Shown: positions 1 to 34,691 of the stretch, piece after piece
Position numbering within the stretch: position 1 is the stretch's first letter
Layout of the letters: each line of letters opens with the position of its first letter
Notes under the pieces: model-generated
Databases searched by the model: none
What the model saw: the letters and a program-made list of their open reading frames with translations, nothing else
What the model was told of the DNA's origin: nothing
DNA from: a candidate division FCPU426 bacterium
Lineage (GTDB): Bacteria > Oederibacteriota > Muellerivitia > Muellerivitales > Muellerivitaceae
Reading direction: 5' to 3'
Assembly: GCA_963796105.1 (NCBI GenBank)
Contig: CAWCKJ010000004.1
Location: 832,001 to 896,000, forward strand
DNA length: 64,000 bases
Position numbers and translations under genes: made by a program

Positions 1-442
1 GATACCACTACGACGTTTCCTTTTTCGCTCCAGAAGTGACGAAACGTTGCCTTCTTCTGACCGGGGTTATTGGGTCACGGCTTCCCCAACCGTGTTTATT
101 TTGCGGGGACATCAAGACTTCCCAAGTTCCTGGGGAACCCCCATGTGCACATGCCCTGCTCTACGACCGCGGTGGACTTGAGGACCCGGCCTTGCTTCGG
201 TCTCTCAGGTTTTGCCTTCCGTTCGTGGAACGACGTCGGCTTCCACAATTCCCTTTTCGAGGCTCAATCACACGGCCTGTGCACTCCCTGTTTACGCTTT
301 GCGGCAACAGTTACCCGTTGGCTCGCACAAAACTCGGTTCCGACTGCTGGCCAGCTTTGTCGGACAGGATTGTTTACCTGCTGGGTTCCATTACAAAGTT
401 TCAGTTATTTCACTTCCTCCTTGTCCAAGCTTCTTGGCGCAC
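1..442 (-). mobile_element. Group II intron (IIB-like), 5' portion; continues beyond the left edge, no RT ORF in window
   Basis: Minus strand starts GTGCGCC at 442 (GUGYG consensus). Domain-I-like motifs GGAACCGAG...AAAGCGTAAACAGGG...GTGATTGAGCCTCGAAA. EBS1 hairpin GCCGACGTCGT-TCCACGA-ACGGAAGGC (loop = revcomp of 223-229) is complementary to the last 7 exon nt TCGTGGA (revcomp of 443-449). Confidence 0.9.
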
Positions 443-476
443 TCCACGATGGGTCCCCTTCGCGGACAATAATTTT

Positions 477-989
477 CTATTTAAAAAGCTCTTTTAATGT
501 GTCAATTGCAGCAACTAATGAGTGCGAACCGCCCTCAAAGGGATGAAAACCGTACCGCAGGTAAAATTCCTCAGCCTTTTTGTTCTTAGCGTCCACAATC
601 ATGTACTTCGCGGCCACTGATTGAACGGCAGCAATGGACCTGCGGATAGCATCCATCAACAAAATCTCCCCCAACCCGGTTCTTTGCCATTTAAGGTCAA
701 CGGCAAGGCGGCCCAATCGCACCGCGGGAACCGGGTACCTCGGGAGGTTTTTTCGGTGGGATTCAGGAAGTGAACGCAATTCCACTTGAGCCATACTCAA
801 GGTGTGATAACCGGCGGCAACCGGATCTCCGCCGGCAGGCACGAGGACGTAAGTGCTGCCCAAACCATTGCGGTGGTTCTGTCCCGCGTATCTTTTCAGG
901 TAATCATTGAGTTCGAAAATGCCGCAGTCAAAAGACTGAAGTTCCGTCTTTTCCGCGATGGCTACAATCTTCCATTTCGGGCCTGGCAT
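477..989 (-). CDS. GNAT acetyltransferase toxin (AtaT/TacT/KacT-like), type II TA
   Basis: Motifs FDCG...LNDYLK, PRYPVPAVRLGRLAVD, GLGEILL, VDAKN...FY..YGF; directly downstream of a DUF1778-like gene. Confidence 0.9.
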   Translation of the reverse strand: MPGPKWKIVAIAEKTELQSFDCGIFELNDYLKRYAGQNHRNGLGSTYVLVPAGGDPVAAGYHTLSMAQVELRSLPESHRKNLPRYPVPAVRLGRLAVDLKWQRTGLGEILLMDAIRRSIAAVQSVAAKYMIVDAKNKKAEEFYLRYGFHPFEGGSHSLVAAIDTLKELFK

Positions 990-998
990 AAAAAGGGT

Positions 999-1286
999 TC
1001 AGGACATTTCTTTTTGGTAACGCCGCGCGGCCGCTTTAAGTTTTTCGTTCGGCATAGGAGGGGTTTCCAGGAGCCGCAGGAACAAGTCCACGTCTCGTTT
1101 GGCCGGAACATAGGTTTTAACCGGGATCGCGTCTTCCTGCGCCGCATGCAGGGATCTCGTCACGAGATAAGAACTAAGGCTCAAACCTTGGGCTTGAGCG
1201 GCTTTTTCCAGCAATCGCTTATCTTGGGGTCGCACCCTCAGTTCGATGCGTTCTTCTTTGGTTTTTAGAGCTTTTGACATGGTCAT
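999..1286 (-). CDS. DUF1778 / RHH antitoxin (AtaR/TacA-like)
   Basis: KEERIELRV...KRLLEKAA...GLSLSSY...PPMPNEKLKAAARRY. GGAGGG precedes the ATG at 1286; alternative start at 1280. Confidence 0.88.
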   Translation of the reverse strand: MTMSKALKTKEERIELRVRPQDKRLLEKAAQAQGLSLSSYLVTRSLHAAQEDAIPVKTYVPAKRDVDLFLRLLETPPMPNEKLKAAARRYQKEMS

Positions 1287-1307
1287 ACCCTCCGCTTTCA
1301 ATATACC

Positions 1308-1334
1308 ATATGTACGGTATTATTCCGTACATAT
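1308..1334. promoter_or_regulatory. Probable TA autoregulatory operator
   Basis: Perfect 10-bp inverted repeat ATATGTACGG-N7-CCGTACATAT about 20 bp upstream of the antitoxin start. Confidence 0.7.
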
Positions 1335-1493
1335 TAATGTGTTTTTCTTGTCCACGATCCCTGCATGAAGCCGGGGGCGGCAACGAACCATCGCTGCGGT
1401 GCGATGGTTTCCCAGCCGTAGACAATATCTCCGCACTCATTTTATTTAAAAAAAGCACGTGAATGCGTTTCCTTATAGCCCCTGGAAAATGTC

Positions 1494-2525
1494 TTAAAAC
1501 AGGGGAAGTTGGTCGGGGGAGACAGAGGCGAGGGATGAGCGTCTCTTACGAGGTTTTGGAGTAGCGGCCGCTGGAGCGACTGCCTCTTTAGATGCCGCGA
1601 CGGGCACAGCATCGGGCACTGGGGATTCAGCAACAACTGGTACGGCTTTGATTGGCGGGGCGGAAGCTTGAAGCTTGTTTTCCTTTGCCTCCTCTTTCCT
1701 CTTTTTCCGGTCCTCCACGGATTTCTTTCCCTCCGCGCAAAGGGGCAGGTACTCGCACCAGGGGCAAAGAGCGCTGGGCTTGGTCGGATAATCCTTGGCG
1801 CTTTCGACCGTCTTGATCTTGGAAACATATTTCTGCTTGAGCCACTCGATTTCCTTGCTGTTTCTTTCCCCCACCACTTGGTCTTCCTCGAAAGCCACGA
1901 AGTGCCAGATCAGCTTGATCTTCTCTTTCGGTCCGTAGCGGGGGTCATGTAAGAGGCCGATCTGGTAAAGGGCCAGCTGGTCCTCGTTCCTCGCGTCCTC
2001 GGCCCCCATCTTGCGGGAGCTGGTCTTGTAATCGTGGATCCAGAGGGTTCCGTCCGAATCCCGGCCCAGGCGGTCAATGTAGCCCTGCATCCTGTATTTG
2101 CGCTCGGGGTCCAGGTCGAAAAGCACCTTCTTCTCGATTCCCTCGGTCTTGTCCTGGTCGAAGGGGTGGTAACGGTGGTAATAGTTCTCCAGGAAAAGCT
2201 GTCCCTTTTGGAAATAATCCTCCGGGGTCTGTCCCTCCTGGATGATGCGGAGGGGCTCGGAGAACCCCTTGTCCTCCTGCTTGCGCAGGGACATTTTCCA
2301 CTGGCTTTCCCATTGGGCCTTGAATTGATCCAAGACCTCGTTCACGGTGGGGACGCGCTGGGGAACCAGCTCGTAAAGGAATTCCATGGCCTCATGGAAG
2401 CGGGACCCGAGGAAAAGCTCGATACCCTCCGGTACCGGAGAGGGGGTCTTGAGAAGATAGCGGTGTTGGAATTGGGAGGGACAGGTGAAGTAAGTATTAA
2501 TTCGCGAGTAGGAATAAACCGTCAT
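1494..2525 (-). CDS. PD-(D/E)XK nuclease, RecB/Cas4-like, with probable Fe-S cysteines
   Basis: SYSRINTYFTCP, LGSRFHEAME, GIE, GYIDRL, IHDYKT, QLALY and C-terminal CPWC-x5-C; low-complexity tail. Confidence 0.85.
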   Translation of the reverse strand: MTVYSYSRINTYFTCPSQFQHRYLLKTPSPVPEGIELFLGSRFHEAMEFLYELVPQRVPTVNEVLDQFKAQWESQWKMSLRKQEDKGFSEPLRIIQEGQTPEDYFQKGQLFLENYYHRYHPFDQDKTEGIEKKVLFDLDPERKYRMQGYIDRLGRDSDGTLWIHDYKTSSRKMGAEDARNEDQLALYQIGLLHDPRYGPKEKIKLIWHFVAFEEDQVVGERNSKEIEWLKQKYVSKIKTVESAKDYPTKPSALCPWCEYLPLCAEGKKSVEDRKKRKEEAKENKLQASAPPIKAVPVVAESPVPDAVPVAASKEAVAPAAATPKPRKRRSSLASVSPDQLPLF

Positions 2526-34363: not shown

Positions 34364-34445
34364 GCCCGAATTTTCTCGACTAGGATATTCGGGATGTTTT
34401 TACCGATTGACATTTCCAGTAAGGAAGAGTAAATACAACGTATAA

Positions 34446-34583
34446 CTCAAGGTGCTCGGGAAATCGGTGAAAAACCGATGCGGACCCGCCACTGTAAGGG
34501 GTATGGATTCATTCCGTAAGCCACTGTCTGAAAGGACGGGAAGGCCCGGAAGTTTGCCCCGTAGCCAGGAGACCGGCCTTGAG
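34446..34583 (+). promoter_or_regulatory. Cobalamin riboswitch
   Basis: AGGT..GGGAA-TCGGTGAAAAACCGA-GCGG-CCCGCCACTGTAA...GCCACTG...GGGAAGG...AGCCAGGAGACCGGCC, closed by CTCAAGG/CCTTGAG. Confidence 0.93.
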
Positions 34584-34691
34584 ATAAATTTTCGACGGCT
34601 TCTTCGGGATAAAGAAGCGGAGATTAAACCTTCTTTCCGGTTTTCCTCCCTTTTCACTCCCTTTAAAGTCTTCGGCCTCGGGAGTAGGCTC

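Follow-up and report, generated by a model that had tools for sequence, protein, structure and literature searches.

A 30-bp palindromic site appears to bound mobile gene cassettes across a family of uncultured bacteria, with a short serine recombinase as their probable mover

Integrons are the only well-known dedicated platform for gene cassettes, in which one tyrosine recombinase works on folded single-stranded sites. Their attC sites are defined by R and L boxes with the crossover near the outer end, and short sites are also known to bound mobile gene modules in the pdif modules of XerC/XerD. According to an excerpt of PMC7923331, attC sites are known to harbour group II introns of class IIC, and class IIB has been reported there as well; ORF-less introns are described as rare in bacteria in part of the text of PMC4424553. 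For serine recombinases, excerpts of three papers report that the recombinase domain of the LI integrase contacts 13 bp and its zinc ribbon positions 16-24 (PMC3783163), that the zinc ribbon contains a coiled coil which enforces direction (PMC5499577), and that the coiled coil controls the direction of recombination and cleavage leaves a 2-nt overhang at the site centre (PMC11722253).

We analysed a stretch of 64,000 nucleotides (the window) from contig CAWCKJ010000004.1 of a candidate division FCPU426 bacterium, whose genome is called G000 here; positions in the window are given without prefix, and those on contigs of G000 with the prefix C2 to C6. An earlier note on this sequence had described two similar minus-strand sequences on either side of a GNAT/DUF1778 gene pair, with a group II intron inserted in one of them. 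Both sequences lie where it placed them: its pattern has exactly two matches in the window (469-447 and 1425-1402; 0 of 100 shuffles reach two), a gapped alignment of the downstream copy (A) with the upstream copy (B) gives 19 identities, in agreement with its count of about 19 of 26, and a gene end precedes each copy, as it had claimed. The genes between them are likewise those that had been named, a TacA1/DUF1778-type antitoxin (999..1280, minus strand; PF08681, E 1.5e-15) and a GNAT acetyltransferase (477..989, minus strand; PF13673/PF13508/PF00583), the latter probably being the toxin of the toxin-antitoxin (TA) pair. Ahead of the antitoxin there is a 27-bp palindrome (1308..1334), found too in two other copies of the TA cassette, which is probably the operator of the pair. 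The DNA of this cassette recurs at the loci L022 (84% identity over 876 bp) and L114 (81% identity over 908 bp), in both cases with different neighbours. A PD-(D/E)XK nuclease gene (1494..2525, minus strand; PF12705) forms the conserved flank outside the cassette. It is present in 30 of 31 family genomes, and since none of 29 relatives (downstream sequence exceeds 1.3 kb in 27 of them) has a site behind it, the window array is, judged from this comparison, a recent insertion behind that gene. Elsewhere, the window contains a cobalamin riboswitch (34433-34595; RF00174, 103 bits).

The two copies belong to a family of sites which was first seen by BLAST of copy A against the genome and then counted with a weight matrix. 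The site is a 30-bp palindrome composed of a 14-bp arm, a central GA and a second 14-bp arm, with the consensus TTGTCCACGACGGG-GA-CCCGTCGTGGACAA. Copy A (443..469, minus strand; matrix score 32.5) consists of nt 1-27 of this palindrome. Copy B (1348..1425, minus strand) had been taken for the uninterrupted one, which is wrong: the 14-bp left arm and GA (1425-1410) are followed directly by a 51-nt hairpin insert (1409-1359) and then by the outer 11 bp of the right arm (1358-1348), and the hairpin formerly regarded as part of the repeat unit is this insert. Both copies are probably damaged as sites. The 51-nt insert has four other genomic copies, each starting directly after GA, and other inserts start at the same point too. 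Besides the one at 1409-1359, such modular hairpin inserts, which begin immediately behind the central GA and terminate in a short tag that contains CAG, are located at C4:717591, 719655, 720736 and 1483979, at C6:185670 and 188823, and at L038, L042 and L050; they are possibly small REP-like units.

The start of the group II intron at 442 was confirmed (Rfam RF02005, 130 bits). Its junction, formerly placed in the loop of the hairpin, lies after nt 27 of the 30-nt palindrome of copy A. The window holds a 5' fragment of an ORF-less intron (1..442, minus strand), which extends about 57 nt past the window edge, and the whole fragment of 499 nt is 97% identical to a complete 792-nt ORF-less intron of genome G001 (L326), which occupies the same repeat position. 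The 3' exon of this complete form begins with CAC, the last three bases of the site, so the insertion point of the intron is three bases short of the repeat end, and the CGATGG-containing arm that had been predicted for the 3' exon is absent. Neither is there an intron 3' end to the left of the window, where it had been expected: the intron breaks off and is followed by two IS1595-family transposase genes (PF12762). These belong to two different IS1595-family elements, arranged tail to tail at C4:829916-831905, each of which has dozens of near-identical copies in G000. An EBS1 loop, TTCCACGA (223..230, minus strand), can pair with TCGTGGA, the final 7 nt of the 5' exon; the IBS1 of the window intron is formed by the last 6-7 nt of copy A. 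The window itself contains the intron start, domain I (RF02005) and the EBS1-IBS1 pairing as group II features, while domains V-VI are found only in the complete relative L326.

In G000 there are 53 copies of the site in 21 clusters, compared with 0, 2 and 1 matches at the same score in three shuffled genomes. Neighbouring sites share their orientation in 30 of 32 pairs in G000 and, among the other loci fetched, in 401 of 410 (431 of 442 overall). The site pattern occurs in 20 of 24 genomes of the same family and in the single further genome of the same order, and in none of the 15 genomes from elsewhere in the phylum; the reversed pattern, used as control, gave 0. Public records with the pattern are uncultured MAGs, one of which is titled Candidatus Firestonebacteria, and metagenome contigs, while viral contigs gave no site match. 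It turned out that the core of the earlier inference, a cassette-like array with a non-attC repeat used as a target by a group II intron, holds at a much larger scale than had been proposed, and further copies exist both in this genome and in its relatives.

Generally, GA or its complement follows paired arms (775 of 796), while nt 20-23 in the inner right arm are poorly conserved and far more variable than their mirror positions. No conserved bases were found in the 10 bp on either side of the site, and the R and L boxes of attC are absent from the 30-bp consensus. The site is able to fold as a hairpin; as left-arm variants have no compensating change in the right arm, the hairpin is not the conserved feature. 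Recognition of an attC-like single-strand hairpin was accordingly lowered as a candidate, for the arm variants are uncompensated and the inserts start after GA. With inverted arms of 14 bp on either side of an invariant, asymmetric dinucleotide, the site has the layout of a serine-recombinase site. A likeness to site I of Tn3-family resolvases was dropped, because no open-access text supported it and the candidate enzyme described below is not of that type. Only two tRNAs lie within 1.5 kb of a site. The 3' end of a tRNA-Asn gene (C4:1259578-1259652) matches the conserved left-arm positions and GA and then continues with GCC, which is the commonest core variant (22 of 352 sites), and a site on C2 (C2:259656) has a tRNA-like left half. 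Speculatively, the site may descend from the tRNA attachment site of an ancestral integrase.

The sites separate single-gene or toxin-antitoxin cassettes. The 259 unique cassettes have a median length of 856 bp and a median distance of 21 bp between stop codon and site, and the longest ORF points in the direction of the site in 244. A scan of 79 cargo proteins, picked from 157 listed, found 37 without Pfam match and 9 TA toxins, the rest being assorted enzymes and secreted proteins. Two units have nearly or entirely the same sequence from site to site within unrelated flanks: one of 1215 bp is 100% identical in two arrays of genome G002, and a TA unit of 798 bp is 99.7% identical in G002 and G022, which belong to different genera. 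From these comparisons we consider it very probable that the cassette system is real and mobile. Circular cassettes were not seen. In contigs matched to the largest G002 array, one joint connects site with site and several contig ends hang loose at sites; these are not counted as evidence given their low depth and a possible assembly artefact. A single cassette between two sites at C3:300419-301396 (L055) is flanked by genes that look panB- and panC-like by sequence, which shows that arrays are seeded inside a housekeeping operon.

One 30-bp-site cassette (C5:44443-45874; L056:4443-5874) consists of a solo cas1 gene (PF01867) and a putative cas2 of 111 aa; this cas1 is 99.7% identical in another genus. 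Behind the cassette come a leader-like stretch and a 37-bp repeat; the latter has 14 copies in G000, which bracket gene-sized pieces of 1.3-4 kb in place of short spacers. Loci with this repeat or cas1 are C6:78386-82698 (L057), C4:829903 and 828010 just left of the window, L023, L035 and L017. As a possible mover of the 30-bp cassettes, Cas1 was rejected, since adjacent sites turned out to be hybrids instead of duplicates; moreover, cas1 is itself cargo with its own repeat. Y1/HUH transposases were rejected as well: of 16 matches in G000 only some are near arrays, with no recurring position at array ends.

Clustering of 1460 ORFs around the arrays yielded a serine recombinase gene that ends a few bases from a terminal site. 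The protein contains only PF00239 (E 4e-22) and PF07508, and zinc ribbon and coiled coil are absent. There are 19 such proteins of 275-283 aa with 74-100% identity (the next match has 61%), which form one clade (99/100) among longer integrases. Residues Y16, R18, S20, D89, R90 and R93 are invariant in 33 aligned proteins, a predicted model of the short recombinase (mean pLDDT 77.6) matches serine integrases in the PDB, and the genomic copies end in true stops. Four of the five intact copies end 7, 13, 13 and 33 bp from a site and are convergent with the array, and a half-site adjoins the fifth. In four further loci, 3' fragments (tblastn) end 13 bp from a site, and two broken copies adjoin a site too. 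The gene is unlike a cassette, as no site was found within 1.5 kb upstream of its start in any of the 5 intact loci. No sites were found near the long relatives listed, and a search of plasmids for the short recombinase (E 1e-40) was negative. Some of the long serine integrases related to it end antisense inside tRNA 3' ends (C6:130222-131043; L359, L363, L364, L365).

An intact short recombinase was found in only 5 of 32 genomes. It was not found in G000 or in the array-rich, incomplete genomes G006, G011, G016, G022 and G023, and G019 has fragments only. The earlier note had suggested looking for copies that bracket variable genes or lie near a recombinase: the former was borne out, while the latter comes down in G000 to a 48-bp 3' remnant of the recombinase beside a site on C6, apart from two long integrases. 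As the intact enzyme has been lost from G000, its arrays are probably orphans. Taken together, the genomic position and the domains of the short serine recombinase make it the likely mover of the cassettes.

To locate the exchange, we compared sites that share only one of their 60-bp flanks, using one spanning set per family and leaving out 16 intron-occupied contexts of 637. The genomes compared are related MAGs and so non-independent, and the expected mismatch counts are inflated by the inclusion of old degenerate sites. With this in mind, 21 pairs with only the upstream flank in common differ 4 times in nt 1-11 (expected 39.9) and 54 times in nt 20-30 (expected 67.7). The 21 pairs with only the downstream flank in common, one of which is an intron pair missed by the filter, differ 11 times in nt 20-30 (expected 67.7) and 24 times in nt 1-11 (expected 39.9). 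The left arm of a site therefore stays linked to the cassette upstream of it, and the right arm to the one downstream, and this flank linkage resolves the exchange to about nt 12-19 only. Some breaks are off-centre: five downstream-sharing pairs, of which two have completely identical flanks, show mismatches in nt 20-22, and five upstream-sharing pairs show them in nt 7-15. Lone arms give a finer view. Among 81 arms without partner (about 9 are expected by chance, and some are intron-occupied), 58 keep GA or its complement next to the arm. The base after lone arm and GA is C in 18 of 51, versus 84% in whole sites, so that conservation in lone arms breaks directly after GA. Judging by these patterns, the exchange points lie inside the site and are best placed at GA.

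This resolution bears on the question whether another enzyme moves the cassettes and the serine recombinase is a passenger. An example is a family-wide Xer-like tyrosine recombinase, for which the site would be read as 11-8-11. Its gene is single-copy in 26 of 27 family genomes and in the order member (57-76% identity), has the same taxonomic range as the site and is intact in G000, and an exchange resolved only to about nt 12-19 leaves room for such a reading. However, conservation ends right after GA instead of at the border of an 8-bp core. All 28 loci of the Xer-like gene are without a nearby site, for which reason this gene was rejected as the mover, and it is present too in genomes without site match. 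The gene (L059:4879-5841; L328-L355) lies between the two copies of an inverted repeat of its own, which is conserved, 15 bp long and spaced by about 1.4 kb. A passenger role of the serine recombinase is opposed by the lack of any site within 1.5 kb upstream in all 5 intact loci. Besides, most family genomes do not have a XerC/XerD pair, and a loose pattern scan for a dif-like site in G000 gave chance-level matches only. A different enzyme as the mover is thus rather improbable.

A palindrome might also be kept for another reason, as a REP-like hairpin, a protein-binding site or an RNA-processing site, with the genes around it swapped by homologous or microhomology recombination of the host. 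The off-centre breakpoints and the many array-rich genomes without short recombinase would suit host recombination, and the possible hairpin folding would suit a REP-like element. Against both stand the near-strict co-orientation of the sites (431 of 442 pairs) and the almost invariant central GA, which lone arms keep before they diverge directly after it. The uncompensated arm variants do not fit a conserved hairpin, nor does a dedicated recombinase clade adjoining the site fit host recombination. We regard this explanation as improbable.

The site is also a target of group II introns, which raises a third possibility. Four intron lineages are inserted in it, after nt 12, 20, 27 (that of the window) and 28, the last being uncertain by one base. 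Among 29 insertion contexts, 26 are in a site, and the 3 off-site ones comprise two relatives of the window intron elsewhere and one copy in tandem behind another. The EBS1 loop of each lineage pairs with the bases just before its own insertion point. In the nt-20 lineage, EBS1 and site position 20 change together between G000 and a relative, a copy of the nt-28 lineage shows a compensatory EBS1/IBS1 change too, and an off-site relative in L327 has a different EBS1 loop that matches its own exon. The window intron had been called IIB-like in the earlier note, a class that is tentative at most: its EBS1 is 6-7 nt long, but no EBS2 candidate was found upstream of it. The lineages fall in Rfam D1D4-4 and D1D4-6 and are mostly inserted in the sense strand of the cassettes. 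Their copies are mostly ORF-less; RT-encoding forms occur in L022, where the protein has RT and maturase domains only, and in L114, and no RT-encoding copy of the window lineage was found. By its position the window intron would remove the conserved nt 28-29 from the site, whereas the first bases of the nt-28 lineage restore the site end, so this lineage probably leaves the site usable.

Such introns could in principle drive the cassette traffic themselves, if copies in neighbouring sites recombined and were later lost via splicing and reverse transcription, as has been proposed for IIC-attC introns. In L114 the TA cassette of the window does lie between two identical intron copies, one array of G000 contains two identical copies of another intron, and RT-encoding versions exist. 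Nevertheless, introns were flagged in only 16 of 637 site contexts, no RT match was found in G000, and position 20 usually accompanies the cassette downstream, a pattern not predicted by insertion after nt 20, 27 or 28. An intron-driven traffic is therefore very improbable. The arrays could finally be divergent integron arrays (CALINs) with a missed integrase, as cassette size, orientation and cargo (9 TA toxins and 37 proteins without Pfam match among 79) are integron-like, but this is largely refuted already and most improbable, because the TIGR02249 cut-off is reached in 0 of 31 family genomes and the 30-bp sites have no attC boxes and exchange in the middle, not near the outer end.

We therefore prefer the reading in which a palindromic site bounds mobile cassettes family-wide and the short serine recombinase moves them at GA, which the sequence comparisons make fairly probable. 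The enzyme would cut the 30-bp sites at the central GA, excising and re-inserting cassettes, and would thereby let the system work like an integron with a different enzyme. It may be the catalytic-plus-recombinase-domain remnant of a large serine integrase. As zinc ribbon and coiled coil are absent, arms of about the present length and reversible recombination of like sites are to be expected: the enzyme would read about 13-14 bp per arm and, having no directionality module, would recombine like sites forwards as well as backwards. Because of its asymmetry, GA would permit a single site orientation only, cassettes might travel as circles closed by one site, and the introns would use the site as a plentiful intergenic target. 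A wider version of this reading is a second, independently evolved integron, and we lean towards it with some reserve. Here a tRNA-targeting large serine integrase would have lost its directionality module and become a reversible shuffler on a 30-bp symmetric site, with dozens of arrays per genome throughout the family and at least four intron lineages contesting the site, one of them regenerating its end and riding in cassettes.

If this is true, a lineage-wide equivalent of the integron has been built on a stripped-down serine integrase, and the cassette design evolved twice. Software that finds integrons would then miss a class of accessory-gene reservoirs, and nature would have supplied a test of the model in which directionality is due to zinc ribbon and coiled coil alone. 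Besides, an enzyme of 278 residues with a 30-bp site is far smaller than tools of the Bxb1 type, and the four intron lineages repeat the relationship of introns to attC on an unrelated site and provide natural EBS1/IBS1 covariation data. Open-access main texts in PMC and bioRxiv yielded no description of cassette arrays with a serine recombinase.

Compared with known systems, the arrays share with integrons and CALINs the co-oriented, mostly single-gene cassettes that each end close to a repeated site, the occurrence of the same cassettes in different arrays, a TA-rich cargo with many proteins of unknown type, the many arrays without adjacent recombinase, and sites that are targeted by group II introns. 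They differ in that no IntI was found in 31 genomes, that the 30-bp site has no attC boxes and exchanges at its centre, that the candidate is a serine recombinase convergent at the downstream end of the array, and that there are about 20 small arrays per genome. The XerC/XerD pdif modules are likewise mobile modules bounded by short sites; here, in contrast, the sites are self-symmetric and have one orientation per array, G000 has no convincing dif-like match, and most family genomes have no XerC/XerD pair. The introns of class IIC-attC and of IIB/class E in integron arrays, as excerpted from PMC7923331, are also parked in cassette recombination sites; the former have an EBS1 of 3-4 bp and use the attC bottom strand, whereas here an EBS1 of 6-7 nt meets a non-attC site, and four lineages, mostly as ORF-less copies, occupy four positions of one site.

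With the large serine integrases (Bxb1, phiC31, SPbeta, LI/A118), the short enzyme shares the catalytic and recombinase domains and a palindromic site with an asymmetric central dinucleotide, and its nearest relatives are integrases of about 510 aa (50-58% identity), some of which end antisense in tRNA 3' ends. It has neither zinc ribbon nor coiled coil, however, and while the large enzymes use distinct attP and attB sites of 40-50 bp that bound one prophage, here one class of 30-bp sites, dozens per genome, bounds cassettes. In conclusion, the system is integron-like in its working, yet its integrase and its site place it outside the integrons, and its enzyme is a serine recombinase, yet domain content and site type set it apart from the large serine integrases.
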